DNA of 64,000 bases. Origin: Cenarchaeum sp. (GTDB lineage: Archaea > Thermoproteota > Nitrososphaeria > Nitrososphaerales > Nitrosopumilaceae). Under the pieces are notes generated by a model. It ran no database searches and was not told the DNA's origin. It was given only the letters and a program-made list of their open reading frames with translations. Where the stretch lies: assembly GCA_965242695.1 (NCBI GenBank), contig CBDESU010000002.1:320001-384000 (forward strand). The letters run 5' to 3'. Positions within the stretch are counted from its first letter, which is position 1, and every line of letters begins with the position of its first letter. The position numbers were made by a program, and so were the translations under genes. Of the stretch, positions 15,735 to 33,769 are shown piece by piece.

Positions 15735-18700
15735 CTATCGCCGCAGTGCCGGCGACGCCGCCGCCGGCTGGCCGGCGACGCCGGACAGCCGCCTCCAAAC
15801 CGTCTTGCACTCCTCGCCCGTGATCGAGCCGCCCTCCGGCTTCCATGCGCTGCCGGGAAGGTCAGAGAGCCACCCTAGCACCCTGCCGCTCTCGGCGGCA
15901 TAGATGTTGTCGGCATCGTGCTCGTGGGCATACTCCGCGCCTATGCGCTTTGAGATGCTTCTCGGTACGCCGTTGATGCGCATGAGCACCGCCGCATCGG
16001 TGTCGACCCCGTGGTACACCATGGCCGGCAGGTTCGCCGCTTGGCTGCCCCGCCGCCCCCGGGCTTCTGGTTCCCCGTCCCCGCCAAAGTCGTGTATCTT
16101 TTGTATGCCTGCCAGTCCCCACGATGCCGAATTGACGACCTTCTGGTAGAGCGCCCTGACGCAGGCGGTGATCTCGGACTCGGCGGTGCCCCCGAAGTGG
16201 TCCGCGGAGATGTCCACTATGCTCTTGCCCGACACCCAGTCGGAGATGAGGGCCCCTATGGCGTCGGGGGTTGAGCGCGGGCCCGACATTGCATCCGAGA
16301 GGTTCTTGACCTCGGGGATGTTGCCGAGCATCACGCCGACCAGTCTTGATATCTTGCCCGATCCGCGGGAGAACATGTCCTGCGGATTCCAGTCGCCCGA
16401 TTCGATCCCCGAGCGCGGGATGGCGCGGATCGCGCCCTCTACGGTCTCGGGCGAAAACCCCGTGATGTCGGACAGGTGCGACAGGCCGGGCCGCTCGTCG
16501 AGCGACTCGCCGTACCTGCGGACTGCATCGAGCAGCAGGCTCTGCGCCGCCGGCTCTAGCCTGTCGTATCCGTACGTCTGGCGCAGCGCGATCTCGGACT
16601 CGGCGGTAAACTGCCTCAGGGTCTCCGCCTGGTTTTTCATGTGCGCCACGTACTGCGCAAGGCTCGACCAGCGCGGGTCGCCCGCAAGCTGCCTCAGGTC
16701 CAGGCCTTGCGCCCCCGCGCCCCCGGCCACCGCGCCGACCATCCTGCCAAGCTCCGACGCAAGGTCCTCGGCCGACTTCATGACGTACTCGGCCGCCTTT
16801 TTTACGTCCGCCCCGTTCCTCCTGTCCACGGCTATGCCGACCATGCCGAGGGACGGCTGGTTGATGCGCCCCGCCCTGCCGATCAGGTTCCAAAAGTCCT
16901 CGCGCGGCATCACCTTGCGGGGATAGTGGTACGACGAGACCAGAATTCCGGAGACCGGAAAGTTGATGCCCTGCGCGATCGTGGTGGTGGCCACCAGCGT
17001 GCGCAGGTCGCCGTTTTCCATCAGCAGCTCCATGAGGTATCTGACATCGTCGGGCAGGCCGGTATGGTGTACGCCGATTCCCTTGCCCAGGTACTTCACG
17101 AGGGGAAAGTTTTCGCCGAGCTCGCTCGCGACGAACCTCCTGGCCACGTCCAGGTCGCTGCTCGCACTGAACTCGCTGCGTTGGTTGTCGTAGATGATCC
17201 TTGCGGTGCTCCAGGCATCGTGCACGGTTCTTGCAAGCACAAGGAAGTTGTGCTCTGCATTGACTTGGGTCGCCAAGAGGGCCGCCGTCTTGTGCTTGTT
17301 CGGCATGACCTTGGATGCCGTGATGGAAAAATTCGTGGTTGTGCCGACCTTGATCTTGCTGTCCACGACGACGGTTTCGTTGCTTGTGGCCAGTGGCTCG
17401 AACATTCCCTCGATTTCTCTTCCCCTTCCGCTCGCATAGCACACTCCGACTACCCTGTCGTTGGGCCTCCAGTCGAGCCCGATGCGCACGGATCTCGGCG
17501 ACCGGGGGTCGAGCCACCTTGCAATGTCGTCTGCATTTTGTACAAACGGCGTCATTAGCAGCAGGCCCGCCTTTTGGCAGTCCCGCTTGATGGTGGCCAG
17601 CAGGAGCTCTAGGTTCCAGCCGCGGGACGGGCCTTCCGCCCTTGCGCTGCCGCCGCCGCCGCCCTCTTTCTCGCCGGCCGCCTCGGCCCCCATGTTGTGG
17701 GCCTCGTCGATTATGCACAGCGCAAGCGACTTGGCGATGGAGCCGCCCGGATCGCGGACCATAAGCAGGAGCTTTTCCGGGGTGGTCACCAGCACGTCGT
17801 ACGGCTTGTCCCCCGACAGCATGGCCCGTTCGAATTCGTCTATCTCCACGGCTCCGGTCGCCTTTTCGACCTTTATTCCGAGGGGGTCTGCCCCGATGTC
17901 CCGCCGCAGCCTTGAGGCGATCTGGTTGACCAGCGCCCGCGTGGGCACGACGTACGCGATCCTGGCGCTGCCGTCCGAGTTGCCGATCGCCTGGAGTATC
18001 TTGAACTCGGCCAGCAGCGTTTTGCCCGACGACGTGGGAAGGCTGATCACCATTGCGCGGCTTGCCGGATCGAGCAGCCCCTCGCGGTATAGCGCCTTTT
18101 GCTGCGGGTACAGCAGCTCAAGTATGGGGCGGTCCGACCCCGCCATGGCGCTGACAAACTGGCCTACCTTTGAGTTTACCCTCCTGGCCACCTCCCATAT
18201 CGAGTTGCTTACCATCTTTGAGAACATGGGCCGCACGATTCGAAGAAGGGTGTCTAGCTCGGCCGATCCCGCGCCGCCGCTGTGCCGCAGTGCCTTGTCA
18301 AAGTGGTAGTCTAGGCGCGCCTCTATGTCCGCCGGCGAGCCCTTTTGCATGTACTCGCATACCATGTCGGTGCACTTGGCAAGGTGGTACAGCGAGGCGA
18401 GCCTGTGCGCAGCCGCGGCCCGGAACGCCGGCTCAAGCGACTCGAAGTAGGGCCTTTCGTGCCCCGCCTGGTCGCGCCTGAGGCTTGCGATGGTCTCCGA
18501 TGCCCTTGCAAGATCCCCCGGGCCCTCTTTTGCAATCGCGAGTCTGATGGCTCCGTAGATGCCGAACAGGATGCGGCGCTCCCATCCCCCTGGCAAGTCT
18601 ACGCCGTCGGCCGGGGGCGGCGGCGCCGTCTCCCTTGCATACCGCCTCGCATCTTCCCACTTTTCCCCCATGTACGCATACGAGACCGCCCGCAGTACGT

Positions 18701-19052
18701 GGCTGATCATTTGGACCGGATCGTCGGGGAGGGGGCACTCTTCCATCAGGGCAAAGCACTCGGCGCATGTTCGCTGGAAGTTTTTGATCCCGTCGTCGGG
18801 GGAGGGGCCGGACCACTGGTCTATTGCGGCCAGCTCGTATGCCTCGGAAACACGCTCTAGGATGCGGACAGCGTCGTCTCCGGGCGGGCTCGGCGCGCTG
18901 ATCACCCTGTTGATCTTTATCATGTTGCGGGTGTCACGGGCAGACGAGCGGTCGGACTCCGGCAGCGCATCGATCAGGAAATGGCTGGCCGTTGTAGCGC
19001 CATTCCCGCCGCGGTCCTTCCTGTCGCCGCCCGCGGCTTCTCCGTCCGTCAC
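15735..19052 (-). CDS. hamB: Ski2-like SF2 DEAD/DEAH helicase, Hachiman HamB-like
   Basis: LPTSSGKT, VPTRAL, TTPEK, IIDEAH, GIGVHHTGL, ATTTIAQGINFP, NLIGRAGR; long helical N-terminus; GTGA overlap with upstream nuclease. Confidence 0.8.
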   Translation of the reverse strand: MTDGEAAGGDRKDRGGNGATTASHFLIDALPESDRSSARDTRNMIKINRVISAPSPPGDDAVRILERVSEAYELAAIDQWSGPSPDDGIKNFQRTCAECFALMEECPLPDDPVQMISHVLRAVSYAYMGEKWEDARRYARETAPPPPADGVDLPGGWERRILFGIYGAIRLAIAKEGPGDLARASETIASLRRDQAGHERPYFESLEPAFRAAAAHRLASLYHLAKCTDMVCEYMQKGSPADIEARLDYHFDKALRHSGGAGSAELDTLLRIVRPMFSKMVSNSIWEVARRVNSKVGQFVSAMAGSDRPILELLYPQQKALYREGLLDPASRAMVISLPTSSGKTLLAEFKILQAIGNSDGSARIAYVVPTRALVNQIASRLRRDIGADPLGIKVEKATGAVEIDEFERAMLSGDKPYDVLVTTPEKLLLMVRDPGGSIAKSLALCIIDEAHNMGAEAAGEKEGGGGGSARAEGPSRGWNLELLLATIKRDCQKAGLLLMTPFVQNADDIARWLDPRSPRSVRIGLDWRPNDRVVGVCYASGRGREIEGMFEPLATSNETVVVDSKIKVGTTTNFSITASKVMPNKHKTAALLATQVNAEHNFLVLARTVHDAWSTARIIYDNQRSEFSASSDLDVARRFVASELGENFPLVKYLGKGIGVHHTGLPDDVRYLMELLMENGDLRTLVATTTIAQGINFPVSGILVSSYHYPRKVMPREDFWNLIGRAGRINQPSLGMVGIAVDRRNGADVKKAAEYVMKSAEDLASELGRMVGAVAGGAGAQGLDLRQLAGDPRWSSLAQYVAHMKNQAETLRQFTAESEIALRQTYGYDRLEPAAQSLLLDAVRRYGESLDERPGLSHLSDITGFSPETVEGAIRAIPRSGIESGDWNPQDMFSRGSGKISRLVGVMLGNIPEVKNLSDAMSGPRSTPDAIGALISDWVSGKSIVDISADHFGGTAESEITACVRALYQKVVNSASWGLAGIQKIHDFGGDGEPEARGRRGSQAANLPAMVYHGVDTDAAVLMRINGVPRSISKRIGAEYAHEHDADNIYAAESGRVLGWLSDLPGSAWKPEGGSITGEECKTVWRRLSGVAGQPAAASPALRR

Positions 19053-19843
19053 GAAGAGTCCCCCCGGACGAGTCCCGGCAGGTCGCTGATGCGGGCCGGG
19101 ACGTAAAGCGCAAAAAGATCCGTTTGGAGGTGGGCGCTCTGCCCCCGTTTGCCCGCCAGGCTGTCGCAGGTGTCGAGAAGATCATCTTCGTCTGGCGTCT
19201 CCTCTGTGATCAGCACGCCGACCAGCAAAAGCCGACCATGACGTACGTACGACTCGATCGCATCGCGGTACCTCGAGGGATCCACGGCCCCTGCGCCGCC
19301 CTCTTTGCGCCTTATTTGCAGCCACCTGATAAGGTGTAACTGATCTGCCCTGCGTTCCAGCTTTCCAAGCTGCTGGCGCAGTCGTCGCATCACCTCCGGG
19401 GGCCTCTTGCCAGGTCCCTTGGGCGTCTTTACCTCGCCAAAAAGGAAGACGGTCCTGCCGTTCAGGCTCGAATAGCCGACCAGATCGGCTCCCGCGCTTA
19501 TCGCCCGCGGGTTCCTCAGGTCTAGGTTTGGTCGGTAGATCTCTGCTTTATGGTCGTCTTCTAGGTAGCATGCGGCAAGATCCTCCCCTATACGCCACGG
19601 TTCTGCCGGCATGCCCACTTTCATCTGCTTGAAGACCTCGTCATAGTCAAAGTCAAGGCCATCGGCCGCGCCGGCCTGCCTCAGATCGTCTAGCACCGCG
19701 CCCGTTTCGTGGGCAAGAACGTGCGCATCTCCTACTCTTCCTCTCATGTAGTCCTCAAAGTCGTTCGGCTCGATTCGGACTCCGATGCCGCGCACGCCGT
19801 GCCGCAGCATTTGGTACGCTATGGTGGTCGCTAGCATTCGCAT
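19049..19843 (-). CDS. hamA: Hachiman HamA-like (DUF1837-type) nuclease
   Basis: IGEDLAACYL...GADLVG...FLFGEVK motif, directly upstream of and coupled to the helicase; start uncertain. Confidence 0.65.
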   Translation of the reverse strand: MRMLATTIAYQMLRHGVRGIGVRIEPNDFEDYMRGRVGDAHVLAHETGAVLDDLRQAGAADGLDFDYDEVFKQMKVGMPAEPWRIGEDLAACYLEDDHKAEIYRPNLDLRNPRAISAGADLVGYSSLNGRTVFLFGEVKTPKGPGKRPPEVMRRLRQQLGKLERRADQLHLIRWLQIRRKEGGAGAVDPSRYRDAIESYVRHGRLLLVGVLITEETPDEDDLLDTCDSLAGKRGQSAHLQTDLFALYVPARISDLPGLVRGDSS

Positions 19844-20278
19844 GCCCAACTCCCGTCCTGCCGCCCCCTGCGCGGCGATCCGAACGCGTACGATGCCCCG
19901 TGTGGCGCCATGTGGCCCGGCCGCCCTGCTCCTGCCGCGACGGGAACCGCCGCCGCCTCCTGTCCCTGGCGCGGCCCGCCCGCCCGCCCTGCCCACTCCT
20001 CCCCGCGCAGGGCGTCTGCCCTCCGGCACCAGGCCCGCCCTCCTGCGCAGGCAAGCCCCTGCCAAGCCGTGCGCCGCGCCACGGGCCGTGCGCCATATGT
20101 CCTGTTAAAATTTCTGCCGCCATGGGCCGTGCGCTACGGCGCCTGGGCGGCCCTGAGCCGCCATTGATGGGCATGTCTCGGATCATGCAGCGCACCTTGA
20201 TCGTTCCGGTGCTTTGTGTCGTGACCGGGCGGTTTGATGCGTAGCGGCCCGCAACGGCATCCCGCGCTTCCTGCCGCG

Positions 20279-21271
20279 CTAGCCGGACGAGGCGTCAAAC
20301 CCTGTCCCCCGCCGCGGCCAGTCCATCAGGTCGCGAACCTGCCGCGGCTCGTGGTACGTGCTCCACTCGGCGTACCCTAGCCCGCCGACGATCCGGACCT
20401 GCTCGGATTCGGGGTTGGCCCTCGCCCAGTTGTACCCCTTGAGGCTGTACGGGTGGGAGTTTAGCGCGGCGTGCTTTAGGATGCCCAGTGCGCCGGCGAG
20501 CCGCGAGAGCGGCCCGCCCGCGCGCCGGCGAGCGTACAGCCACAGGCCGTACCCGAACTGCCTCCGCTCCAGGTCGCCCGTCTCGCAGTCCATCGCCTCG
20601 ACCCCTACGGTCCTGACGGCGACGGCCGTCGTGCCGGGCCCCGCCGCAAGGCTCTCGAATATGTACGTGTCAAAGCCGTTGGCCACCCTTGCGTACCCGG
20701 CCGCATCGACGCGCGCATGGTAGTCGGGAAGGTGCAGCCAGAACATGCCAGAGTTTGACGCCCCCCGTACGAGCGCCCGCAGGCGGTACGTCAAGTACCG
20801 CAGGTGCGAGCCCGGCCCGTCCGTGTGCAGGCGCAGCGAGAATGAGACGAGCGAGACGCCTCCCGTTCCGACTATGCCAAGGCCCTTCAGGGCGTCCCTG
20901 CGCAGTATCGTGTCGATGTTGTACAGGAGGGCCGTGTCGGTGCGGCACTCTTCCAGGCACCTATGGACGACGCGGGCCGGGTGGAGCCTCCACTCTGGCG
21001 AGCGCTCCACCTCTATAGCGCGCAGGACGGGCGGCTTGATGCCTGGGGCCGATGCCGCAGCGGCCGCGCCGGCAAGAAAGCCTGCCAGGTCGGGCGCGGC
21101 AGGCGCGTCGACGCCGACTATGATCTCGTCGGGGCCGAGGGACGCGGCAGACGGCAGCGACCTTGCGGCAAAGGCGCGGCCCCGGGGGGTGTCAAGGAAG
21201 GGGACGACGATCGTAAAGGGCCTCTTCTTTCCGCCCTGCTCCCCACCGCCGTTCCCGTATTGTTTGCCCAT
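20279..21271 (-). CDS. GT-A fold (GT2-like) glycosyltransferase
   Basis: FTIVVPF...PDEIIVGVD...NIDT; CTTAAA upstream; paralog of 49722-50702. Confidence 0.65.
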   Translation of the reverse strand: MGKQYGNGGGEQGGKKRPFTIVVPFLDTPRGRAFAARSLPSAASLGPDEIIVGVDAPAAPDLAGFLAGAAAAASAPGIKPPVLRAIEVERSPEWRLHPARVVHRCLEECRTDTALLYNIDTILRRDALKGLGIVGTGGVSLVSFSLRLHTDGPGSHLRYLTYRLRALVRGASNSGMFWLHLPDYHARVDAAGYARVANGFDTYIFESLAAGPGTTAVAVRTVGVEAMDCETGDLERRQFGYGLWLYARRRAGGPLSRLAGALGILKHAALNSHPYSLKGYNWARANPESEQVRIVGGLGYAEWSTYHEPRQVRDLMDWPRRGTGFDASSG

Positions 21272-22230: not shown

Positions 22231-22299
22231 GCGCTCGGCGGCGGGGCGCGCAGATTCGCCTAGCGAAGCCTTTTCATAACCCCCAGCGGGGGCGCGGCC

Positions 22300-22764
22300 G
22301 TGAAAAAGACGGATCTGCTCCTCCTGCTCCTGTACGTCCACGACCGCCGCCCCGTCGTCGGGCTGACGCGGCTCGTCAAGCTCCTGTTTCTGGCGCAGAT
22401 GGAGGCGCTGCCCGACGATCCGCTGCGCGCCCACGGGTGCGCCCCGTTTGACTTTGTGGCACACCGCTTCGGCCCGTTCACCTTCGACATATACGACGAA
22501 ATCGAGTTCCTAAAGTCCGTGGAGATGATGACGGATGACGACGGCGATGATGACGGGCAGTTTTGCATCACGGACAAGGGATGCAGGTTCGCCGAGCAGC
22601 GCCTGCTGCAGAGGATTCCCGCCGACCAGATCGAGGGCGTCGAGAAGGTCAAGAAAAGGCACTGCGAGGAAGAGCTCGACGATCTCCTCTACTACGTCTA
22701 TACCAAGTATCCCGCGTACACCGTCAGGTCCGAGATACTCGACAGGGTGCTGAGGCGCAAGTGA
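22300..22764 (+). CDS. SocA/Panacea (DUF4065)-like winged-helix protein
   Basis: GLTRLVKLLFL...FVAHRFGPF...IYDEIEFL...ITDKG...LLYYVYTKYP. Confidence 0.75.
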   Translation: MKKTDLLLLLLYVHDRRPVVGLTRLVKLLFLAQMEALPDDPLRAHGCAPFDFVAHRFGPFTFDIYDEIEFLKSVEMMTDDDGDDDGQFCITDKGCRFAEQRLLQRIPADQIEGVEKVKKRHCEEELDDLLYYVYTKYPAYTVRSEILDRVLRRK

Positions 22765-23309
22765 TCCCGGTCGACATAGCGCTGCTTGTGGGGCTGGCAA
22801 GCGCGATGATGGTGCTTGGTGCCACGCTGTTCAGACTGTCGGACGACAGGAAAAGGGCCACGGACGACGACGTCGATTCGACATACGGAATTATTCAAAA
22901 AAAGGTGCTGGAGCCGGCACTCCTGTCCATAATCGAGAGCAAGAAGGGGAGGTCCAAGATCAAGGACATCGTCAGGGATCCCGATGTGTTCACGAAGCTA
23001 GATGCGTACAAAAGGACACTGTTTGACTACAATGAGTCGAGCGGCAAGCGCGGCGCCGCTTCGGCGCATATCGAGCATGCGTACATGGCATCCTTCATCA
23101 CTGCCGGCATCGTCTATCTTGCACTGGCCCTAGACGCGCTGGCCGCATCTTTGGCCCTGTTCGATGACCTGACCCCAGTCGCCCCGGCGGTTGGCGGGTC
23201 GGCCGCAGTGCTCGGCGCAATTGCAGTCGGCTACGCACTGGCCAAGTACCGCGCTGAGGACGGGGCGTTCCGGCTCGAAATGAGAAAGATCAGGAGCAGG
23301 CTGTCATGA
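22761..23309 (+). CDS. 3-TM membrane protein
   Basis: GTG 22761 overlaps the upstream stop (GTGA); N-terminal TM, soluble loop, two C-terminal TMs. Confidence 0.7.
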   Translation: MIPVDIALLVGLASAMMVLGATLFRLSDDRKRATDDDVDSTYGIIQKKVLEPALLSIIESKKGRSKIKDIVRDPDVFTKLDAYKRTLFDYNESSGKRGAASAHIEHAYMASFITAGIVYLALALDALAASLALFDDLTPVAPAVGGSAAVLGAIAVGYALAKYRAEDGAFRLEMRKIRSRLS

Positions 23310-23707
23310 CCGTTCTTGAAAGATCGCTGTACGGCCCGGTCACGACCACCGGCCCGTTTGCCGGCCAGCCCTTTGCATACGAAGCGCGCATTGCAGACTG
23401 GGCGCTCTCCACCAAGAGAATAGATCTGGTGTGCATCAAGAACCGGAGAATGCATGCGATAGAACTCAAGGTCTACGACTGGAAAGGGGCCGTGAGGCAG
23501 GCGTACGCGAACCTCTACGTTGCCGACTATTCGTACGTGGGCCTGTGGCACGAGACCGCCGCCCGGGTGGATCGGGAGGCGTTTAAAAGGTCGGGCATCG
23601 GGCTGCTCGAGGTGAACAAGACGGAGTGCAGGCTGGCGGTCAGGCCAAAGAGGTCGACGCGGGTGATCCCCGAGCGCCATGCCTACGTGAGGCAGCACTG
23701 CAGGTGA
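23306..23707 (+). CDS. PD-(D/E)xK nuclease-like protein
   Basis: RIDLV...AIELK.YDWK.A.RQA...ADYSYV; ATGA overlap. Confidence 0.75.
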   Translation: MTVLERSLYGPVTTTGPFAGQPFAYEARIADWALSTKRIDLVCIKNRRMHAIELKVYDWKGAVRQAYANLYVADYSYVGLWHETAARVDREAFKRSGIGLLEVNKTECRLAVRPKRSTRVIPERHAYVRQHCR

Positions 23708-23713
23708 CATGAG

Positions 23714-24931
23714 ATGACCGAGCTTGCCATACGCGTCAACATGCCACGGGAAATGGGGTGGCTTGAAAGGTTCGGGTGGGACGGGACGGTCATCCTGCCC
23801 GCGCACGTCCTAGAGGGGGTCAAGAAGCGCGCCGCGTCGATGGTGAAGAGGCTTGGCTGCCCGTACGTGATCGATCCGCACACATACGTCTTCGGGGGCG
23901 ATGCGGACGAGGTTGCCGGCAAGCGATGGTTCGACAGGCTGGTGGCCGAGTACGGAATAGGTGCGACGACAGCACCCCGCCAACCACGCCTTTCCCCCAA
24001 CATGCTGGTGAAAGACGACGAGGCGACGGACGCCCTGCGCGATTTTGTGCAAAACGTGACAAGGTACCAGAACAGCGCGGTCGTGGACGCGAGCGGCGAG
24101 GCAAACGAGTACGAGGAGTTTGAATCCGACCACAAGGTCAGGGCCGCCTCGCCCAGGTGGGTCGTGCCGCCCTACTTTTACATGGAGGGCGGCGGATCGG
24201 AGTGGCTTGCCGTCAACGTCAGGTCGATCGAGCTGGCGGCCAGGCTCGCGCCCGGCAAAAACAACCTGCTCTCCATGATAATGGTTGATCAGGAGGCATT
24301 GTCCGACATCGATGCAGTCGACGAGATAGTGTCGGCCTACCGCGAACTTCCGGTTGCGGGGCACATGGTATGGGTGGCGCGCATGGACGAGGCCAGGGCC
24401 AGGGAGTCCGAGCTGATGGACTTTCAGGAGTTCACAGGCAAGCTTTCCCAGGACGGCAAGCCTGTGTACAACGCGTACGGGGGACTTTTTTCCCTTGCCG
24501 ACGACAAGATCAGCGGCGCGTCCCACGCAATATGCTACGGCGAGCATCGGAACCCGTTCGAGACAGGGGGCGCCGTGCGTTCGGCGCGCCTCTACCTGCC
24601 CGCGCTCCACTCGAAGGTGCCCTACGCCCGCCATCCCGAGGTGACACAGGCCCTTGGGCTCGAGGAATGCCGGTGCAGATGGTGCAAGGTACCGGGAGAG
24701 GGCAAGGGCATGGGGGAGCTGGAGCATGCCGCCCTCCACTTTCTGGAGCACCGCGTCAAAGAACTGGAGCAGGTTGAAAAAGAGGGCGGGGCCGCCTTTC
24801 TTGACAGGCTAAAGTCCGCCCGCGAGCGCGCCCGAGGCAACGATGCGGAGAAGGCATATACGGCATACTATGACCACTTTGAGACATGGCACCGGGCCGC
24901 CGCATCGTACAACAAGCGGGCGAAGGGGTGA
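23714..24931 (+). CDS. putative TIM-barrel protein with C-terminal CxCxxC...H Zn site (TGT-like or beta-protein/sce7725-like)
   Basis: IDPHTY, VVPPYF, YGGLFSL, YGEHR, LYLPALH, CRCRWC...HFL. Confidence 0.6.
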   Translation: MTELAIRVNMPREMGWLERFGWDGTVILPAHVLEGVKKRAASMVKRLGCPYVIDPHTYVFGGDADEVAGKRWFDRLVAEYGIGATTAPRQPRLSPNMLVKDDEATDALRDFVQNVTRYQNSAVVDASGEANEYEEFESDHKVRAASPRWVVPPYFYMEGGGSEWLAVNVRSIELAARLAPGKNNLLSMIMVDQEALSDIDAVDEIVSAYRELPVAGHMVWVARMDEARARESELMDFQEFTGKLSQDGKPVYNAYGGLFSLADDKISGASHAICYGEHRNPFETGGAVRSARLYLPALHSKVPYARHPEVTQALGLEECRCRWCKVPGEGKGMGELEHAALHFLEHRVKELEQVEKEGGAAFLDRLKSARERARGNDAEKAYTAYYDHFETWHRAAASYNKRAKG

Positions 24932-25127: not shown

Positions 25128-26783
25128 TCAATTCTGTGATCCCCTCGTCCTTGCACCCGCAATCCATTTACCCACGTCGTCTAGGAACTCTTTGACTCCG
25201 TCCGATTTTTCGCCCTGCGGGTTTTCGGCTAGGAATTCAAGGGATCTCTCGAACCAGTCGTTACTAGGGATGTCTGGGAGCCATGTTTCAAGCGTGCCAC
25301 CCTTTACCATGAAGAGGCCGTGCATTTTAAGCTTTTCAATCAAGTCCAACGCTTGATCCTTATTTTCGACAAGCGCATGTAGGCCTTTTGTGTGGATAAG
25401 CTTCTTTCCGTTGGCGTCCTTACGGTCACCGAGTTCGGATGTAATGGCGGGGCAGTTGGAATGCAAGGGGGGATCGAGAGGGGCACCGACCGCGCTCAAC
25501 AGCAAGTTCCATTCGTTCTCGCGAAGGTTGACTATGTCAAAATCGGCCACTACCGCTGTAGGCATGCCTATCTTGCGCAGTGGCTCGGCAATTTTATATA
25601 GCGACTGCTTGTTTTGTGCATTGATAAAAAGGCATTGGTCGATCCCCCGGTCGTTATCGTTAAGCTGTGCGTTGACTGTCTCGTAGAACATTCTGTCCGT
25701 GTCACCCTCCACTACTACGGCCGCACTGAAAAAGAGCGCGTCAAGCACCCTTGTCGCCATAAGCAGGGGAGATTTAGTCACTTGCGAGAGTTGGTTCGGC
25801 TCCAGCACCTTTGTTGTCGCGTTTTTTCCGTCGTATGTAAGTCGGATTATCGTCACGTCTGTCGACGAGTCTATGGCGCCCAGCAGGAAGGAGGAGCTGT
25901 GCGTGGAAACCAGCAGGGTCGCGCCCCGGTCCTTGGCTATTCTGGTCAAGTTTCTGGCCAGGAGCCGAGCCAAGCCGGGGTGCAGGAACGCCTCGGGCTC
26001 GTCAATCAGCATGATGCGGTGATCTAGGCTCATGACGGATGCGAGCAGCCCCACAAAGGCGTTGACGCCGTCGCTAAAGTCGGAAATGGGCCGCGCGTTG
26101 GAGTGAAACCTCCTTGAGGTCGTGTCAAGGCTCTGCTCTTCCCTGCTGTCGCTGGGTGGGCGCTCGCTTAGCCGTATAACGAATTCGCGCATGTTGGTAG
26201 GGTCGATCGTGAAATAGAGGTCAAACGCTTCTTTTGTAAGACTTCTCACGCGTTCGCGTTCGGATTCGTTCTGAAAGAGGGACATGAGGTGGTTCGTGGG
26301 CGCAACCTGCAGGTCGCCGGTGGGCTGGTTACTAGCCAAAGCCAGACGAGTCTTTCCGTCTAGGCGGATTGTGTAGTGGCGCACTATGTTCGGTATTAGA
26401 TAGCTTTTGTCGTTATGCTTAATGCCATTTTTAATGGATGTAATGTGTAGTAGTGACTGCTGTGGCTCGGACACCCCTGGTGTGTAGTAGTTTGCATAGA
26501 TTTGGTCATTCTGTAATATCGTTCCCTCGGGAGGCTTCGTCTTGAACTTGTTGATTAGCTCCAACGCCTCATTGAAATTTTTTGGGTAGACAAGCGTTAC
26601 GTCAGATATCACAAGTGCTTTCGGGTCGGGTACGGAGCAAAATGCCTCTACCTCGCGCAGAGCCAAGCTCTTCCCTGAGTTGTTGGGACCCACCAGAATC
26701 ACAACGGAGGCAGGCGTGACGGACAGGGGCGTCTTGCCGTCGGGCCCACTTGCAAACGTAAGCTCTTTTATCCCTATTGGCAC
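25128..26783 (-). CDS. OLD-family ATP-dependent nuclease (ABC ATPase + TOPRIM)
   Basis: VGPNNSGKS, SDG, LIDEPEAFLHP, STHS, VEGDTD, ADFD; lower GC. Confidence 0.8.
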   Translation of the reverse strand: MPIGIKELTFASGPDGKTPLSVTPASVVILVGPNNSGKSLALREVEAFCSVPDPKALVISDVTLVYPKNFNEALELINKFKTKPPEGTILQNDQIYANYYTPGVSEPQQSLLHITSIKNGIKHNDKSYLIPNIVRHYTIRLDGKTRLALASNQPTGDLQVAPTNHLMSLFQNESERERVRSLTKEAFDLYFTIDPTNMREFVIRLSERPPSDSREEQSLDTTSRRFHSNARPISDFSDGVNAFVGLLASVMSLDHRIMLIDEPEAFLHPGLARLLARNLTRIAKDRGATLLVSTHSSSFLLGAIDSSTDVTIIRLTYDGKNATTKVLEPNQLSQVTKSPLLMATRVLDALFFSAAVVVEGDTDRMFYETVNAQLNDNDRGIDQCLFINAQNKQSLYKIAEPLRKIGMPTAVVADFDIVNLRENEWNLLLSAVGAPLDPPLHSNCPAITSELGDRKDANGKKLIHTKGLHALVENKDQALDLIEKLKMHGLFMVKGGTLETWLPDIPSNDWFERSLEFLAENPQGEKSDGVKEFLDDVGKWIAGARTRGSQN

Positions 26784-27189
26784 GGGCGCCAAGACCCATC
26801 GGTGGAATAATAGTGTGGTGTGCCGCGCTGCGGCTTTGCAACAAGCACTAAGCCGTCTTGGTGGCTGAGGGCGGTCCATGAAGCCAAGCCGTCGTCGATC
26901 CGCACAAGGAACATCCGCGACCCTACGGAAGCAGGGCGATCGGACGCGGCTGTTGAGCCTTGCCATGGCCTCGGCCAGGACGGGATCGTTGCGACACGCA
27001 TCGGCGATCGCCCTGGTGCCCCTACCAAACCCGCAACGCCTGTCAATGCGGTTGGCATGCCCCCTGTACGCCTTACGTTGTGGAGCATCCTACGATCAAC
27101 CCAACTCTGGCCTTACGGGGTGGATTAGACTCGCGAATTTCCAGCATTCGGACGCTCATGGTGAACACGGTTGCTAGCGGTATTCGTGG

Positions 27190-27685: not shown

Positions 27686-30600
27686 TCACTCCGCTACGCC
27701 GCCGGTCGCATTCAACCAGAACCTGGCCCAGGCGATGTTGCCGGGCGAGTCTAGCGCGACACAGACGACCTGCGTCAGCCCCCACTGCACGGGCGATCCC
27801 GGCGGCGGCTGGCAGCTTACGCGCACGTCCGCTCCATCGACCGCATCGAGCGCGGCCGGGACGGTGTAGTTTGCCCACGGCTGGGACACCCCCGAAAATG
27901 CCAGCGTAAGATTGGCCACGCCTGCGAACACGGGCGGCGTCGTGTCGCGCACGGTCAGCCGCATCCAGGCCGATACCGTATTGTTCGACGCGTCCGTCGC
28001 GGTCCACAGCACGTCGTGGCCGCCTACGGGGAGGGGGCCGGGCGGGCTGCGCGACAGCACGGGCGACGGGTCGGCCTCGTCGGCGGCCCACACGCCGACC
28101 GTGCTTGCGTTTATTCCCGTGAGATTGCCGGCCGCCTCCAGCACCGCACGGGACGGCACATGCAGGAGCGGCGGCACCCCGTCGGTGATGTTGACCAGCA
28201 GCACCTCATGGGCGGGGGGAGCGCCGCCGGCCCAGCGCGCGGTCACGTTTATCGCGTACGAGCCGACGTCGGTGGCGTTCGGCGAGAGTGCGATCAGGGC
28301 CTCCGTGGCGTTGCCGTCCGGGCGCACGTACTCTACCCTGGCGAACGCCGGGGCCGGCGCTGCTCCCCCGCCAAATGGATCGACAAGGGACAGCTCGATT
28401 GTAGGCTGCCCCTCCGCGCTCGCCCGCACCTCCGCCGTGCCGTTGTACGGCAGTGCGACGCTAGAGTTCGAGAGGGCCAGGCGCGGCGGCATATCGCCGA
28501 CGCCGCCAGGGGAGCCGCCCTCCTCGCGCGTCGCATTGACCCAGAACCACACGCGGGCCGAGTTACCCGACCGGTCGGACGCGTCGCACTCGACCAGGAT
28601 CAGGCCGTCGTACGCGGGCGGGCTGTGCGAAGGCGGCGGCGAGCAGCCTACGGGCACCGCGCCGTCGACAAGATCGGTCGCGTTCGGGAGCGCGTACAGC
28701 CCCGCAGAACCGCCGCCGTAGGGGGGCAGCGTGGCGTTGACGGCCACTCCCAAGAACGACGGCGGCGTCGTGTCCACTACGAACAGGCGCATTGTAGCCG
28801 AGGCAGAGTTGTTTGACGCATCCGTCGCGGTCCACCGTACGCGGTGGTCGCCGAGCGGGAGCGGCCCAGAGGGGCTGCTCGAGAGGACGGGCGACGGGTC
28901 GGCCTCGTCGTATGCGGCCACGCCGAGCGCCGTCGCGTTGAGCGCCGTCAGGTTGCCGGTGGCCTCTATCGCAACGTCCCACGGGACGGACGCAAAGTAC
29001 GGCGGGACCATATCGGTGACGTTGACCGTGATTGTCGCATGGCTGGACAGCCCGTATGGCGTGCGCGCCGTCACGTTGAGCGCGTGCGAGCCGATGTCCG
29101 AGGCGTTCGGGGCGAGCGTGATCATGGCGGTCGTGGTGCCGTTTCCGTCGTACCGGTACGTCATGTTGGCAAAGGCGGGAGGCGGGGCCATAGAGTTTCC
29201 GAGCCCGTTGCGCGCTGCTGCAAGCGACATGTTGACGGGGCCCGCCCCCGTCGCGTCGACCTCGATGCGGGCCGTACGGTTGTATTCTACGGCGACGCTC
29301 GAATTCGGGACGGCCAGCGCGGGCGGGGCAAGTGTGCCGTTGCCGGTCGCCGTAATGTTGAACCGCACCCACGCGTAGTTTCCCGACCGGTCTATGGCAT
29401 CGCATGCGACCGTCGTCGTCCCCCACGGTACGGGCGATCCCTGGCGGGGCCAGCACGACGCCTGCACGGGGCCGTCGACCAGGTCGGTCGCGTTCGGGAC
29501 GGGGTATGCGGCGACGGGCTGGACGCCCGGCGCGAACGCTAGCGTGAGGTTTTCCGTTGCCGCGAACTTGGGAGGAGTCGTGTCCCTGACGAACAGGTAC
29601 ATCGTGGCAGAGGCAGTGTTGCCCGACGCGTCCGTCGCGGTCCACCGCACATGGTGGCCGCCCAGGGTCAGGGGGCCGGCCGGGCGGTGCGAGAGGACGG
29701 GACGGGGATCGGCCTCGTCGTATGCGACCACGCCGAGCCGCGTGGCGTTGACGGCCGTGAGCCTGCCGGTCGCCTCTACTGCGATGTCCCACGGCACGGA
29801 CGCAAAGTACGGCGGTACAGTGTCGGTGACGTTGACCCTGATGACGGTGTGGTTGGACAGCCCGTATGGCGTGCGCGCCGTCACGTTGAGCAGGTGCAGC
29901 CCGACGTCCGTGGCGTTCGGGGCGAGCACGATCAAGGCCGTCGTGGTGCCGTTTCCGTCGTACCGGTACGTGAGGTTTGCAAAGGCCGGAACGGGATAGG
30001 TGCGGTTGCCGCTCCCGCCGTCCACAATGGCGGCGGCAAGCTCGACAGAGACGGGCCCCTCTCCCGCCGCGTCGACCTCGATGCGGGCCGTACGGCTGTA
30101 CTCGACGGCGACGCTAGAGTTGGAGGTTTCCAGTGCGGGGGGAGGGGCAAGCGTGCCGTTGCGGGTGGCGTTGATCCCGAACTGCGCCCATGCGTAGTTT
30201 CCAGACCTGTCGGCGGCATCGCATACGACCGTCGTCAGGCCGTACGGGATGTGCGCGTAGGGGGCCGGCCGGCAGGTTGCGTCCACGGGGCCGTCGACCA
30301 GGTCGGTCGCGTTCGGGACGTCGTAAAAGGCGACCGGCTGCGCGCCCGGCGCGAACGCGAGCGTGAGGTTCTCGGTTCTTTCGAGCCGGGGCGGCGTCGT
30401 GTCCCGGACGATCAGGTACATCGTGGCAGAGGCAGAGTTGTTTGACGCGTCCGTTGCGGTCCACCGCACGTAGTGATCTCCGAGGGGGAGCGGGCCCGCC
30501 GGACGGTGCGAGAGGGACGGGTACGGGTCGATCTCGTCGTATGCTACTACGCCGAGCGCGGTCGCGTTGATCGCCGTGAGGCTGCCGGTGGCCTCTACGT

Positions 30601-33600
30601 GCACGTCCCACGGCACGGACGCAAAGTAGGGAGGGGTCGTGTCGGTGACGTTGACCGCGATTATCGTGTGGTTCGACAGCCCGTACGCCGTGCGCGCCGT
30701 CACGTTGAGCAGGTACGAGCCGATGTCAGAGGCGTTCGGGGCGAGCACGATCAGGGCCGTCGTAATGCCGCTGCTGCCGTTGTAGTGGTACGTCATGTTT
30801 GCAAAGGCCGGGGGCGGGACGGTATGGTTCCCAGGCCCGTCGCGCGCTGCGGCAAGCGACATGACGGAGGGCCCCGCCCCCGTCGCGTCCACCTCGATGC
30901 GGGCGGTACGGTCGTACCCCAGCGCGACCGTGGAATTGGACGCGGACATTGCGGGGCCGCCTAGCGAGTCGTCGCGGGTCGCGTTGACGGTGAACTGGGC
31001 CCACGCGTAGTTTCCAGACCTGTCGCCGGCATCGCATGCGACCGTCGTCGTCCCCCACGGTACGGGCGAGCCCTGGCGGGGCCAGCACGACACGTGCACC
31101 TGGCCGTCGACCAGGTCGGTCGCGTTCGGAATGCGGTACGATGCGACCGGCTGCGCGCCCGGCGCGAACGCGAGCGTGAGGCTTGCCGCCGCCTCGAACT
31201 CGGGCGGCGTCGTGTCTTGGACGATCAGGTACATGGTGGCCACAGCCGAGTTGTTTGACGCGTCCGTCGCCGTCCACCGCACGTAGTGGTTGCCAAGTGG
31301 AAGGGGGCCGGCGGGGGTGTGGGAGAGGACGGGACGAGGATCGGCCTCGTCGTATGCTACTACGCCGAGCTGCGTGGCGTTGATGGCTGTGAGGCGGCCG
31401 GTGGCCTCTACGCGCACGTCCCACGGCACGGACGCAAAGTACGGCGGCACGGTATCGGTGACGTTGACCGCGATTATCGTATGGTTTGACAGCCCGTATG
31501 CCGTGCGCGCCGTCACGTTGAGCAGGTGCAGCCCGACGTCAGACGCGTTCGGGGCGAGTGTGATCAAGGCCGTTGTAATGCCGCTGCCCGCGTCGTACCG
31601 GTACGTGAGGTTTGCAAAGGCGGGGGGCTGTACAGCGATGCCGGTTCCGTTGGCGGCAGAGGGTGCAAGCTCGAATACGGAGGGGCCCGCGGCGGCGACG
31701 GCGGCGACCGTCGTGTTCGCCGTTCCCCCGTACGGGACGGCCAGGCTCGCGTTGGACACGGACAGCGAGGGGGGTGCGTCGGGAGGGACGTCGATGGCGT
31801 TGAGCCCCAGCACGCTGCGAAGAGGAGGGTTTCCGGCGATGCCGATCCAGGCCTGCCTAAAGTCCAGTATCGAAGGGCCGTCCGGATCGTGCCGCATCGA
31901 TACGGTCGCGTTCCACACCGCAATTCCGGCGCCGCTCACCGAGTCGCCCGGCTCGTCGGCCGCATCGTACAGGTCCCACAGCGCGCCGGCGACGTTTCCG
32001 GGCACGTCCGCGCCGGCGACGAACCCGTAGACGTGCCGCCCGCCGACGTCGTACGCCGGCACCTCCAAGTCGACGGCGACGGGCAGGTGGTGGTATTGCA
32101 GAGACGGCGACTCCTGCACGACGGCGGCCATAAAGTGCGCCCATCCCGACCGCCACGCGCAGCCGCCCTGTGCAACCGGCAGGTCGATGCGAAGGTGCGC
32201 CGGGCAGGCGGCCTCGCTCCCGGCATTGCCGCCGCCTCCCCCCGGCAGGCCCGCAAGCACGTGGTGCATGTACACGTGCGCTATGGAGGCCGGCGAGGCC
32301 TCGGCTCCGTGCCGCGCCCCCTGCCCGTGCACCGAGCTGACCGTCATTACGCCGGACGTGCGGTTGTACGACGAGGCCGCCGGCGATGCGGGGTCCCACC
32401 TTGCGTCGGCCGCGGGGGCATCGTGTCCGAACTCGACGGCGATGCGGGCATGCGCCTCCCCGATCGCGCCGAGCACCCACAGGGCCCGCCTAAACTCGTG
32501 GCCGTCCGGAACGGTGACGTTGAACCCCCTGATCGGATCCGAGAGGTCGCCCGCCGTCGCTGCGTGCAGCGCGTACGTCGCGTTGCGGGCGTCTGCCACG
32601 CGGGAGTGGGGCGCGTCGGCCTCGAAGACTATGCGCAGGTCCACGGGGGAGGATGGATCGGTCGGGTCGAGCGTGAGCACGCTCATCTCGAAGAACCCCG
32701 TGCGGTCCGTCGCGGTGCAGGCGCCGCGCGGGTCGGACGGGTCTGCAAGGTTGTCCAGCAGCGTCAGCGTGCGGTTGTCGTCCCCCACGTCGTACATGCA
32801 GGCCGAGACGCCTGCCTGGCCGCGCACGATGCCGTCGGCATCGCGCGCGAGCAGTGTCCCGTACACGTACGAAGATATGGTCGGGAACTGGAACGCGCCC
32901 GAGGCGCCCGAGGCGCCCGAGGCGCCCGAGGCGCCCGAGGCGCCCGAGGCGCCGGCAAGCCGGCGGTGCTCGGCGGCGACCGCATCGCGGTAGACTGCGG
33001 GGAGGTCGCCTGCATTATCGGCAAGCCACGCGGCGGCATCGGCGCCTGGAGGGAGCGCCCTTGCAAGGTGGGCGGCCAGGGCGTCGGGGGGAGGGAGCGA
33101 GGATGCGGAGCTTGAATCGCGGGGCATGTCCATGGCGGGGGCCGATTCCGCGGCGGTCGAGCTTGCGGCTGCCGCGTGTGCAGACCGAACGTCAAAGCGG
33201 ACGGCATCGCCGCTTGTCTCAAGCACTGCCAAGGCGCCGGCTACTGCCCCGCCGGCTCCGACCACGCGCACGTCGACAAAGTTCCGCGGAGGCGCAGGCT
33301 GCTCGGAGACCGTAATCGCGATCTCTGCGGTGCGGATGCCCTCGTCCTCGCCAGCGGCGGCTGCAGGCAGGGCCTTTTTGGCGTGGAATACCGCAAACTC
33401 GCCAGGCAGGCCACCCATCTCGACCGTTCCCGGATAGACCGTGTAGCCGGGCGAGGCCACCTCTATGCCGGCCGGAAAGCGCAGCAGTATGAACCCGCCA
33501 CCCGCGGCGGCGGTGTCCTGTGATGCGGCCAGGAAGGGGGCGGCCGTGTAGTTGACCGCGATCAGGCCCGTGCCGCCGACGGGCACGCTCGCCGGAAATG

Positions 33601-33769
33601 CGATCGAAGGAGGCGCGGTTGCCGCCTGCAGGCCGGAGAGCAGCTCGGCGGCATCAGCAACAGGGACGCCCTGCACAAGAAGGGCCGCGGCGGAGGCGAT
33701 CGCAACGGCGACTGTCACCATAGCGGCGGACCTAGCATGCGACCGATCTGCGCGTCTCCTTCCCAACAC
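27686..33769 (-). CDS. large secreted HYR-repeat surface protein with N-terminal zincin-like region
   Basis: signal peptide (...VAVAIASAAALLVQGVPVADA); 5 modules of Ig-like + 2 HYR (DTTPP, ATDLVDG.V...C...G.T.V.C.A.D.SGN); many NxS/T; TTATTAA upstream. Confidence 0.85.
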   Translation of the reverse strand: MLGRRRADRSHARSAAMVTVAVAIASAAALLVQGVPVADAAELLSGLQAATAPPSIAFPASVPVGGTGLIAVNYTAAPFLAASQDTAAAGGGFILLRFPAGIEVASPGYTVYPGTVEMGGLPGEFAVFHAKKALPAAAAGEDEGIRTAEIAITVSEQPAPPRNFVDVRVVGAGGAVAGALAVLETSGDAVRFDVRSAHAAAASSTAAESAPAMDMPRDSSSASSLPPPDALAAHLARALPPGADAAAWLADNAGDLPAVYRDAVAAEHRRLAGASGASGASGASGASGASGAFQFPTISSYVYGTLLARDADGIVRGQAGVSACMYDVGDDNRTLTLLDNLADPSDPRGACTATDRTGFFEMSVLTLDPTDPSSPVDLRIVFEADAPHSRVADARNATYALHAATAGDLSDPIRGFNVTVPDGHEFRRALWVLGAIGEAHARIAVEFGHDAPAADARWDPASPAASSYNRTSGVMTVSSVHGQGARHGAEASPASIAHVYMHHVLAGLPGGGGGNAGSEAACPAHLRIDLPVAQGGCAWRSGWAHFMAAVVQESPSLQYHHLPVAVDLEVPAYDVGGRHVYGFVAGADVPGNVAGALWDLYDAADEPGDSVSGAGIAVWNATVSMRHDPDGPSILDFRQAWIGIAGNPPLRSVLGLNAIDVPPDAPPSLSVSNASLAVPYGGTANTTVAAVAAAGPSVFELAPSAANGTGIAVQPPAFANLTYRYDAGSGITTALITLAPNASDVGLHLLNVTARTAYGLSNHTIIAVNVTDTVPPYFASVPWDVRVEATGRLTAINATQLGVVAYDEADPRPVLSHTPAGPLPLGNHYVRWTATDASNNSAVATMYLIVQDTTPPEFEAAASLTLAFAPGAQPVASYRIPNATDLVDGQVHVSCWPRQGSPVPWGTTTVACDAGDRSGNYAWAQFTVNATRDDSLGGPAMSASNSTVALGYDRTARIEVDATGAGPSVMSLAAARDGPGNHTVPPPAFANMTYHYNGSSGITTALIVLAPNASDIGSYLLNVTARTAYGLSNHTIIAVNVTDTTPPYFASVPWDVHVEATGSLTAINATALGVVAYDEIDPYPSLSHRPAGPLPLGDHYVRWTATDASNNSASATMYLIVRDTTPPRLERTENLTLAFAPGAQPVAFYDVPNATDLVDGPVDATCRPAPYAHIPYGLTTVVCDAADRSGNYAWAQFGINATRNGTLAPPPALETSNSSVAVEYSRTARIEVDAAGEGPVSVELAAAIVDGGSGNRTYPVPAFANLTYRYDGNGTTTALIVLAPNATDVGLHLLNVTARTPYGLSNHTVIRVNVTDTVPPYFASVPWDIAVEATGRLTAVNATRLGVVAYDEADPRPVLSHRPAGPLTLGGHHVRWTATDASGNTASATMYLFVRDTTPPKFAATENLTLAFAPGVQPVAAYPVPNATDLVDGPVQASCWPRQGSPVPWGTTTVACDAIDRSGNYAWVRFNITATGNGTLAPPALAVPNSSVAVEYNRTARIEVDATGAGPVNMSLAAARNGLGNSMAPPPAFANMTYRYDGNGTTTAMITLAPNASDIGSHALNVTARTPYGLSSHATITVNVTDMVPPYFASVPWDVAIEATGNLTALNATALGVAAYDEADPSPVLSSSPSGPLPLGDHRVRWTATDASNNSASATMRLFVVDTTPPSFLGVAVNATLPPYGGGSAGLYALPNATDLVDGAVPVGCSPPPSHSPPAYDGLILVECDASDRSGNSARVWFWVNATREEGGSPGGVGDMPPRLALSNSSVALPYNGTAEVRASAEGQPTIELSLVDPFGGGAAPAPAFARVEYVRPDGNATEALIALSPNATDVGSYAINVTARWAGGAPPAHEVLLVNITDGVPPLLHVPSRAVLEAAGNLTGINASTVGVWAADEADPSPVLSRSPPGPLPVGGHDVLWTATDASNNTVSAWMRLTVRDTTPPVFAGVANLTLAFSGVSQPWANYTVPAALDAVDGADVRVSCQPPPGSPVQWGLTQVVCVALDSPGNIAWARFWLNATGGVAE
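32895..32953 (-). repeat. 9-bp coding repeat (GAS)x6 linker
   Basis: GCGCCCGAG tandem. Confidence 0.9.

Follow-up and report, generated by a model that had tools for sequence, protein, structure and literature searches.

The DNA analyzed here, called the window in the following, is the whole stretch of 64,000 nucleotides at positions 320,001 to 384,000 of contig CBDESU010000002.1 from the archaeon Cenarchaeum sp. (assembly GCA_965242695.1). The list of open reading frames (ORFs) and reading of the sequence revealed four intact, tightly coupled genes on the + strand of the window at positions 22300-24931, labelled O1, O2, O3 and O4 from the first to the last gene of the operon. The ORFs listed are O1 (22300-22764), an ORF that contains O2 (22563-23309), O3 (23306-23707) and O4 (23714-24931). 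The O1 stop and the O2 start overlap in GTGA (22761-22764), the O2 stop and the ATG of O3 overlap in ATGA (23306-23309), and a gap of 6 bases (23708-23713) separates O3 from O4. O2 most likely starts with the GTG at 22761 and then encodes a protein of 182 amino acids (aa), since the O2 genes of related loci start 0-3 bases from the O1 stop and encode 175-184 aa. Chance ORFs are abundant in DNA of 63-65% G+C (67 ORFs were listed in 9.5 kb). Since long chance ORFs are common, gene status rests on homologues and conserved order and not on the openness of the frames. The lengths of the window genes are matched by those of their homologues (147-170 aa for O1, 175-184 aa for O2, 133-142 aa for O3 and 403-421 aa for O4). 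Thus, the four intact and tightly coupled genes described in an earlier note, which had been made from the sequence alone, were confirmed.

Upstream of O1, the A+T-rich patch CTTTTCATAAC (22271..22283, + strand) was read from the sequence as a candidate archaeal TATA-like promoter element of the operon. Within the G+C-rich spacer 5' of O1, CTTTTCATAA (about 22271-22280) is the sole A+T-rich patch. The patch lies about 17-30 bases before the GTG start of O1, and this position plausibly fits a promoter of a leaderless or short-leader archaeal mRNA. The upstream regions of 6-7 related archaeal loci could not be aligned, so no conserved promoter motif was obtained from them.

Folds and Conserved Residues of the Encoded Proteins

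The signature protein of the operon is O4 (23714..24931, + strand). Its model and fold matches indicate a 405-aa, Zn-binding (beta/alpha)8 barrel with the fold of tRNA-guanine transglycosylases (TGTs) and a remodelled pocket. The AlphaFold model had a predicted local distance difference test score (pLDDT) of 81.5 and a predicted template modelling score (pTM) of 0.84. In a Foldseek search of the PDB, the 50 best matches listed were all TGTs (best E 3.2e-4, TM about 0.5). VIA-align gave the highest score for the archaeosine TGT (ArcTGT) 1iq8 (Z 21.0, root-mean-square deviation (rmsd) 3.6, 294 residues aligned), followed by TGT 3unt (Z 18.5), QTRT2 6fv5 (Z 17.2), Cap10 9ntn (Z 16.0, rmsd 3.9, 269 aligned) and DpdA 7ui4 (Z 15.5, rmsd 4.1, 271 aligned). 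Other barrels reached Z values of at most 12.7, i.e., below all five TGT-type matches. The Zn motif C319-x-C321-x-x-C324 ... H342 is invariant in 25 close homologues. Across 100 representatives of the O4 family, C319 was found in 99 and C321, C324 and H342 in all 100. The DSGG motif is not present in O4, and an invariant PY-x-IDP stands in its place, while the archaeosine TGTs of relatives carry MTDSGG. The earlier note, which had proposed a Zn-binding TIM barrel with CxCxxC...H and without DSGG, was therefore correct on this point.

At the sequence level, the O4 family was linked to ArcTGTs by hhalign (E 9e-6, probability 83%) in the Zn region only. Pfam PF01702 matched none of the 100 representatives at E<=0.01. 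NCBIfam TgtA matched one of them weakly (E 0.0034), and otherwise no Pfam, NCBIfam or PADLOC family was found. The Pfam and NCBIfam models of the T4 beta-protein (Beta_protein) and sce7725 likewise matched 0/100 at E<=0.01; since no solved structure of this group appeared in the fold searches, O4 may still be related to it in fold. A sequence search of PDB chains with O4, as a single sequence or as a profile of 25, retrieved no TGT. A tblastn search against 50,697 phage records gave no match, and the ESM Atlas returned unnamed, mostly bacterial clusters and no named cluster. In the genome of the window, PF01702 matched two other genes, with O4 not among the matches. One of these genes is the ArcTGT at G000:C2:1079759-1080739, away from O4. 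The second, weak match (E 3.6e-6, profile positions 170-343) lies at G000:C2:468204-468668 (locus L018, outside the window) in a 557-aa ORF.

Six residues, D54, P55, P153, C321, C324 and H342, are invariant in the 100 representatives, and C319, Y154, Y294, W392, E350, G256, G286, W220 and Q119 are nearly so. D54 is the sole invariant Asp; further conserved acidic positions are E226 (87/100) and E277 (75/100). In TGTs and DpdA, three invariant active-site Asp residues are described as general acid/base, as guanine-recognition residue and as nucleophile (PMC10164549). Judged by strand order and aligned ranges, D54 would end the third strand and thus take the position of the general acid/base Asp, and Y154 would replace the guanine-reading Asp. 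An hhalign alignment with a broader TGT set (14 ArcTGTs and the E. coli TGT, low mact) spanned 312 columns with E 2e-5. It was not used for residue mapping, because its confidence was about nil outside the Zn region and its placement of D54 departed from strand order.

O3 (23306..23707, + strand) was identified as a minimal, 133-aa PD-(D/E)xK nuclease from its conserved motif, structure model and fold matches. The motif comprises E5, D40, E53-x-K55 and Q65. In 54 O3 homologues, E5, E53, K55, Q65 and G99 do not vary, and conservation of D40 reaches at least 90%. The predicted model (pLDDT 96.2) was aligned by VIA-align with 3dnx (Z 13.1, rmsd 2.7, 120 residues aligned), NucS 2vld (Z 9.8), the XisH-like 2okf (Z 9.6), PaqCI 8em1 (Z 9.6) and Can2 7bdv (Z 7.9). 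O3 of the window had no Pfam, NCBIfam or PADLOC match. Among its homologues, the MTES_1575 restriction endonuclease family of Pfam was matched by 6/54 and Hjc by 2/54, and a weak profile match to NucS was observed (E 0.39). The PD-(D/E)xK assignment of the earlier note was thus supported by the motif and by the fold. Fold and motif are common to O3, NucS/EndoMS (2vld) and SPO1766 (3dnx), but O3 is a bare catalytic domain without the N-terminal DNA-binding domain of NucS, and 3dnx is a protein without an assigned function. In the representative library, the 557-aa protein P0158 is a natural O3-O4 fusion, matched by the O3 hidden Markov model at residues 4-119 (E 2.4e-27) and by O4 at 167-556.

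O1 (22300..22764, + strand; GTG start) was delimited by the ORF list and by homologues as a 154-aa Panacea/SocA-like protein with a winged-helix-like insert. Among 47 O1 homologues, 19 matched Pfam SocA_Panacea at E<=0.01 (best 2.1e-7), and 5 matched HTH_45, a winged-helix signal. By these comparisons, O1 is Panacea-like at the family level only, and the SocA-like winged helix-turn-helix protein seen by the earlier note holds at that level. O1 also matched PDC-M19A of PADLOC (E 2.5e-13), but the match was confined to positions 8-133 of the 294 in the profile; all 12 of the O1 homologues tested likewise matched this model. The N-terminal half of phrog_14939 was matched by O1 as well (E 7.2e-14). 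O1 thus has only one domain, located in their N-terminal halves, in common with PDC-M19A of the candidate system PDC-M19 and with this phage family. O2, O3, O4 and 100 O4 relatives matched neither a PDC-M19 component nor any other PADLOC model, and no mention of PDC-M19 was found in the literature searched. O1 is proposed to be an antitoxin or regulator, and the antitoxin control suggested by the earlier note likewise stays at the level of a proposal.

O2 (22761..23309, + strand) was identified by hydropathy, its GTG start and position as a 182-aa membrane protein and putative accessory effector. The Kyte-Doolittle plot with a 19-residue window showed three hydrophobic stretches at about residues 1-25, 106-135 and 137-162, as the earlier note had called. 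They correspond to an N-terminal transmembrane (TM) segment and two C-terminal TM segments, with about 80 soluble residues in between. No Pfam, NCBIfam, PADLOC or PHROG family matched O2.

Conserved Core, Exchangeable Effectors and Distribution

Relatives of O4 were collected in 88 loci, i.e., the window, 7 genome loci and 80 metagenome contigs, which are 80 of 129 confirmed matches. Since alignment A2 was too divergent for locus searches, the narrower O4 alignment A4 was used. The four window proteins were then searched with jackhmmer over all loci. O1, O3 and O4 occurred together in 63/88 loci. O3 lies directly upstream of O4 in 77/88, and 9 of the 11 misses have less than 600 bases upstream. 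The O3 and O4 reading frames overlap or nearly touch. O1 was present in 67/88 loci, always as the first gene of its unit, and none of the loci with at least 1800 bases upstream is without it. The linkage of O1, O3 and O4 survives rearrangement, because it is retained in divergent and convergent layouts. In a Thermococcus metagenome-assembled genome (MAG; locus L006), O1 is divergent from O3-O4 with no O2 between them, and in loci L090 and L092 as well as in two IMG/VR contigs, the units O1->O3 and O4->SIR2 face each other in a convergent layout. The genes are thus co-conserved; the earlier note had held that a lack of co-conservation would speak against a common system.

As accessory effectors, the membrane protein and a SIR2-like protein exclude each other. 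A 169-245-aa ORF lies between O1 and O3 in 38 of the 63 loci with O1, O3 and O4. Most of these ORFs encode an N-terminal TM segment, a soluble stretch and 1-3 C-terminal hydrophobic segments (1-4 segments in total by Kyte-Doolittle hydropathy). The jackhmmer-type search recognized O2 only in 9 close loci. Among 28 O2-like proteins, no conserved residue was found and the mean column identity was 16%. Since they share no conserved residue, no O2 family profile could be made. Where O1 abuts O3, a gene sits directly 3' of O4, and these genes form one family of 17 members. A SIR2-like gene directly follows O4 in 14/63 loci, and membrane gene and SIR2 occur together in 0/63. Three of the proteins encoded after O4 matched Pfam SIR2_2 at E<=1e-5. 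All 7 of those tested matched SIR2 or Aga_SIR2 of PADLOC (best E 3.8e-14), and the Argonaute-associated SIR2 model was the best PADLOC match for 5 of the 7. Thus, the four-gene unit of the earlier note is co-conserved, but its conserved core is O1, O3 and O4, and the membrane protein can be swapped with SIR2. The domains and the linkage behind the suggestion of a sensor or base-exchange enzyme coupled to a nuclease and a membrane effector stood, but DpdA-like exchange is unlikely and the membrane effector is not fixed.

It was also considered whether the divergent helical tail at the C-terminus of O4 varies with the type of effector, with median profile ends of 334 in 17 SIR2-type loci vs 376 in 36 membrane-type loci. 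This idea was dropped, as many membrane-type copies also end near 332.

A subgroup of O1 proteins carries an N-terminal extension of about 100 aa (L030:1415-2977, L038:1759-3182 and L046:4670-5482). These three loci have neither a membrane gene nor SIR2, and O1 is preceded by a gene for an extracytoplasmic function (ECF) sigma-70 factor in L030 and L038. The extended O1 may be anti-sigma-like, which suggests control of a sigma/anti-sigma type.

The distribution of the cassette is patchy. The word-indexed database contained 27 homologues of O4, all of which lack both a Pfam domain and an informative name, and 17 of O3, and among species-representative genomes 6 loci encode an O4 relative. All four genes in the same order and with the same tight junctions were found in 3 Nitrosopumilus MAGs and 1 Nitrososphaerales MAG. 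Among 61 genomes of the family and order of the window, full-length O4 was present in 2, i.e., the genome of the window and G010. A further 31 matches to the O4 profile, in 31/61 genomes (G010 included), covered profile positions 298-376 only and lay within 455-571-aa ORFs; in these the profile picks up the Zn region, and all 8 that were extracted carried ArcTGT motifs. One copy has decayed (L005:2972-6402, Nitrosopumilus sp., OZ245003.1). Its O3 is split over two frames, and a transposase-like ORF of 393 aa, which runs on the opposite strand, separates the two remnants of its O4, one N-terminal and one C-terminal. An exhaustive O4 profile search of 1.84 billion representatives returned 898 clusters (50% identity) at E<=1e-3, the weakest of which may be TGT Zn regions, 730 at E<=1e-10 and 359 at E<=1e-30. 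Archaeal records with the cassette belong to Nitrosopumilus, Nitrososphaerales, Thermococcus and Freyarchaeota. Many contigs were assigned to bacteria, because their neighbouring genes encode sigma-70 ECF factors, SLH proteins, SelA/SelB and BREX (bacteriophage exclusion) proteins. The cassette was also found with A4 on 2 viral or proviral (IMG/VR) contigs; a search of viral contigs with alignment A1 gave no match.

In the window, the cassette is located between a PDC-M23A/B pair and an OLD-family nuclease. For the other loci, 166 ORFs of at least 180 aa were selected within 5 kb of the cassettes, and 101 of them from 45 loci, mostly the longer ones, were scanned. By raw counts, 22/101 flanking proteins, from 17/45 loci, carried restriction-modification (RM), BREX, HEPN, RES, Schlafen, HerA, Mrr, NERD, HNH or Fic domains, and 12/101 were transposases, integrases or recombinases. 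In L001:1-4378 (Nitrosopumilus sp. LS_AOA), the cassette directly follows a gene for an OGG-type 8-oxoguanine glycosylase and lies about 3.5 kb from a housekeeping TGT. This proximity is a single case and probably a coincidence.

Interpretation as a Candidate Defence Cassette

The operon of the window was interpreted as one copy of an undescribed, horizontally scattered, defence-type cassette (abortive-infection or toxin-antitoxin-like) of archaea and bacteria, to which a probability of about 0.55 is assigned. A conserved core, exclusive effectors, patchy spread, an island setting and a Panacea-type first gene are the typical appearance of a defence system. The cassette combines patchy spread and island location with a linkage that is independent of gene order, a swappable SIR2/membrane effector and a Panacea-type first gene. 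In defence systems such as short prokaryotic Argonaute/SPARSA, Thoeris, CBASS (cyclic oligonucleotide-based anti-phage signalling system) and SIR2-HerA, the effectors (SIR2, membrane or nuclease proteins) can replace one another. These systems resemble the cassette in that a conserved sensor core is combined with either a membrane or a SIR2 effector, but the core found here is unrelated to Argonaute, TIR, CD-NTase or HerA.

With regard to mechanism, the most likely ligand of O4 is a base or nucleotide flipped out of a nucleic acid, and O4 would serve as specificity or sensor subunit. It might also be a one-Asp N-glycosidase that cuts the glycosidic bond of the flipped base via D54. DNA is favoured over tRNA as the probable target, because the structural neighbours of O3 are mostly DNases. 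O3 would act together with O4, probably as a complex, and cut the nucleic acid. O1 is thought to restrain the toxic parts, to repress the operon, or both, until infection occurs. The second effector, O2 in the window and a SIR2-like NADase elsewhere, would be a cell-suicide arm that kills or arrests the infected cell, in the case of O2 by damaging the membrane.

Several points weigh against this reading. First, with respect to the proteins, O1 of the window scored E 0.022 and 16.1 bits against Pfam SocA_Panacea, below the cut-off of 25.7. The placement of D54 rests on strand order, and the N-terminal part of the 312-column alignment, which has no printed confidence outside the Zn region, puts D54 elsewhere. 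The best candidate for the nucleophile position, E277, is Glu in only 75/100 representatives, and O4 could be catalytically inert. Second, with respect to the loci, O1 and O4 occur without O3 in L020 and L022, and O2-like genes beyond the close relatives were recognized by position and hydropathy alone. Neither a membrane gene nor SIR2 was present in 11/63 loci, so that the second effector is not obligatory; of these 11, 3 end right after O4 and cannot be judged, and 6 (4 of them near-identical) have the O1 with the N-terminal extension of about 100 aa. Third, with respect to the samples, only 80 of the 129 confirmed metagenome matches were kept, the ORFs of the loci were called with a custom script, and the 88 loci are not independent observations, since several contigs are near-identical. 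The flank counts have no background control. Among 12 sequencing runs that contain the stretch or part of it (4 with an uncoded label, i.e., 3 sponge metagenomes and 1 metagenome), none was listed as an RNA run.

The best O4 folds are tRNA enzymes, with ArcTGT (Z 21.0) and bacterial TGT (18.5) above DpdA (15.5), and the sole sequence-level link of O4 is to the ArcTGT Zn subdomain. Both observations would fit a tRNA-directed toxin, in which O4 removes or exchanges a tRNA base, O3 cuts the damaged tRNA, translation stops and O1 is the antitoxin. Such a toxin appears unlikely. O4 shares the fold and, by profile (E 9e-6), a homologous Zn subdomain with archaeosine and queuine TGTs (1iq8, 3unt; PF01702), but it has neither DSGG nor a PF01702 match, and it is without the PUA or C-terminal tRNA-binding domains, with 405 aa compared to 503-665 aa for ArcTGT ORFs. 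In addition, the guanine-reading Asp is not retained in O4, and most of the closest structural matches of O3, such as NucS, PaqCI and further restriction enzymes, are nucleases that act on DNA. The lower Z value of DpdA may merely reflect its own insertions. Unlike an archaeosine TGT, O4 is sporadic (2/61 relatives), and the genome of the window has its own ArcTGT elsewhere.

It appears quite unlikely that two modules merely travel together, i.e., a PanA-PanT pair of O1 and a membrane toxin O2 next to a separate O3-O4 nuclease module. Panacea antitoxins are paired with small membrane toxins in two-gene loci and are described to neutralize many toxin folds, membrane disruptors included (PMC8832971). 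O1 resembles the antitoxins of these PanAT loci (Panacea/DUF4065 antitoxins; SocA) in being Panacea-like at the family level and in being the first gene, and O1-O3 and O4-SIR2 are separate convergent units in four loci. PanAT is a pair, whereas the cassette comprises 3 to 5 genes. Moreover, O1 persists where the membrane gene is absent. In all 25 loci without this gene, it stays with O3 and O4 and abuts or overlaps O3, and no locus with enough upstream sequence is without O1. In Thermococcus, the linkage of O1, O3 and O4 is kept with a divergent O1 and without an O2 in between. The PanAT survey relied on gathering thresholds (PMC8832971); since most O1 copies score below the Pfam cut-off, a survey of this kind would miss most of them.

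Archaea with an archaeosine TGT make preQ0, and the genome of the window has such a TGT. O4 might insert a 7-deazaguanine or another base in host DNA, with O3 restricting unmodified DNA as in a Dpd-like restriction-modification system. O4 has a TGT-type barrel and C-terminal Zn site in common with DpdA (7ui4), the DNA preQ0 insertase of Dpd, as well as a defence context and an adjoining nuclease gene. Nevertheless, this alternative is highly doubtful. DpdA and TGTs have three invariant active-site Asp residues (PMC10164549), but the O4 family keeps one. Base exchange of the DpdA kind, as offered by the earlier note, is therefore unlikely. The partners differ as well, since O4 is accompanied by the Panacea-like O1, the minimal PD-(D/E)xK nuclease O3 and, as effector, either a membrane protein or SIR2. 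DpdB (ParB-like ATPase), DpdC (DUF328) and the deazaguanine-synthesis proteins QueC/D/E were found neither among the 101 flanking proteins (Pfam E<=1e-5) nor among the neighbours in the window. Partners of the Panacea, SIR2 and membrane type suggest abortive infection and not self-marking, and O3 has no DNA-recognition domain. Self-marking would thus be unlikely in view of both the catalytic residues of O4 and the partner genes.

Handling of a protein as by Cap10, with O4 binding or transferring a nucleobase on a protein partner (O1, O3 or the effector), is very improbable. Cap10 (9ntn) of type IV CBASS is among the five specific fold matches of O4 (Z 16.0) and is likewise a TGT-fold protein remodelled for an immune role. 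The partners of Cap10 are the QueC-like Cap9 and a CD-NTase that bears a deazaguanine at its N-terminus, and the TGT pocket of Cap10 is described as remodelled to hold this deazaguanine-bearing N-terminus (bioRxiv 10.1101/2025.04.06.647259). Unlike in type IV CBASS (Cap9-Cap10-CdnD), neither a QueC-like Cap9 nor a CD-NTase was found in the operon or in the set of 101 flanking proteins. For the catalytic Asp/His pair and the conserved base-binding residues described for Cap10, no equivalent was identified in O4. Finally, a niche housekeeping function in repair or RNA modification, placed near defence genes by chance, would fit the glycosylase and TGT genes beside the cassette in L001 but is hardly credible, as the cassette is present in 2/61 related genomes, one of its copies has decayed through an insertion sequence, SIR2 or membrane effectors accompany it, RM, BREX or HEPN-type genes flank it in 17/45 loci, and it occurs on 2 viral or proviral contigs.

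The defence reading, in which the cassette would be new and built on an unnamed branch of the TGT fold, is consistent with the database searches: as the earlier note had stated, no named system was matched, and PADLOC 2.0.0, Pfam and NCBIfam returned nothing for O2, O3 and O4. Since the cassette is missing from these collections, annotation pipelines would label all four genes hypothetical. A search of the literature without most subscription journals or supplementary tables gave no description of the O1-O4 gene combination. To our knowledge, the TGT fold is known in immunity only as DpdA, for deazaguanine insertion in DNA, and Cap10, for protein deazaguanylation. These two recruitments are described in PMC10164549 and bioRxiv 10.1101/2025.04.06.647259, respectively. 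The BREX-related "BRC" system also recruits a TGT homologue, but the partners named for it, i.e., HerA, GNAT, PglZ and STAND, are other than those of the O4 cassette (PMC12839542).

Large as it is, with 730 clusters at E<=1e-10, the unnamed TGT-fold branch would provide the signature protein of a separate cassette. We know of few defence systems that have been tested in archaea. If validated, the cassette would be a new system and would raise the question of what a one-Asp TGT barrel does to nucleic acid. Many phages install 7-deazaguanines in their DNA. As a tentative extension, in which confidence is low, the TGT fold may have been recruited to immunity independently for a third time in O4, with a new mode of action. 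O4 would then recognize unusual bases in invading DNA (e.g., 7-deazaguanines), either as a reader that flips the base or as a single-Asp N-glycosidase, and would license the PD-(D/E)xK nuclease and the membrane or NAD-depleting effector, with the Panacea protein as a safety catch. If the sensor reading holds, a modification-dependent innate immune sensor would have arisen from a tRNA-modification enzyme and would be common to Asgard, thaumarchaeal and euryarchaeal archaea and to bacteria.

Surroundings of the Operon in the Window

On the - strand upstream of the operon, PADLOC identified the PDC-M23A/B pair (15735-20065), a candidate defence system with a Hachiman-like helicase. The DEAD/DEAH helicase of 1105 aa matched PDC-M23B over its full length (E 0) and, more weakly, HamB of Hachiman (E 1e-58), and the 338-aa protein encoded upstream of the helicase matched PDC-M23A (E 1.3e-39). 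A 330-aa ORF (20279-21271, - strand) between the pair and the operon gave no Pfam, NCBIfam, PADLOC or PHROG match. On the other side, a gene for a 612-aa OLD-family ATPase-TOPRIM nuclease (25128-26966, - strand; Pfam AAA_21, AAA_15 and OLD-like_TOPRIM; PADLOC Old E 5.2e-26) is convergent with the operon, and the G+C content falls to about 0.55 over 25-27 kb.

Further along the - strand, an ORF of 2037 aa (27686-33799) contains about five internal repeats of about 280 aa and is rich in N-x-T/S sites; judged by its translation, it may be a repeat protein that is secreted or located at the cell surface. Two tandem-repeat arrays were also observed. The first one (10000-10230) consists of a perfect 27-base unit repeated 8.6 times. 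The second one (10888-12055) is G-rich and about 1.1 kb long, and its 15-base unit GGGCTTGCGGGCGGC occurs in about 79 copies (64% matches). This second array accounts for the G+C maximum (0.86) and for the strong skews seen at 11-12 kb.

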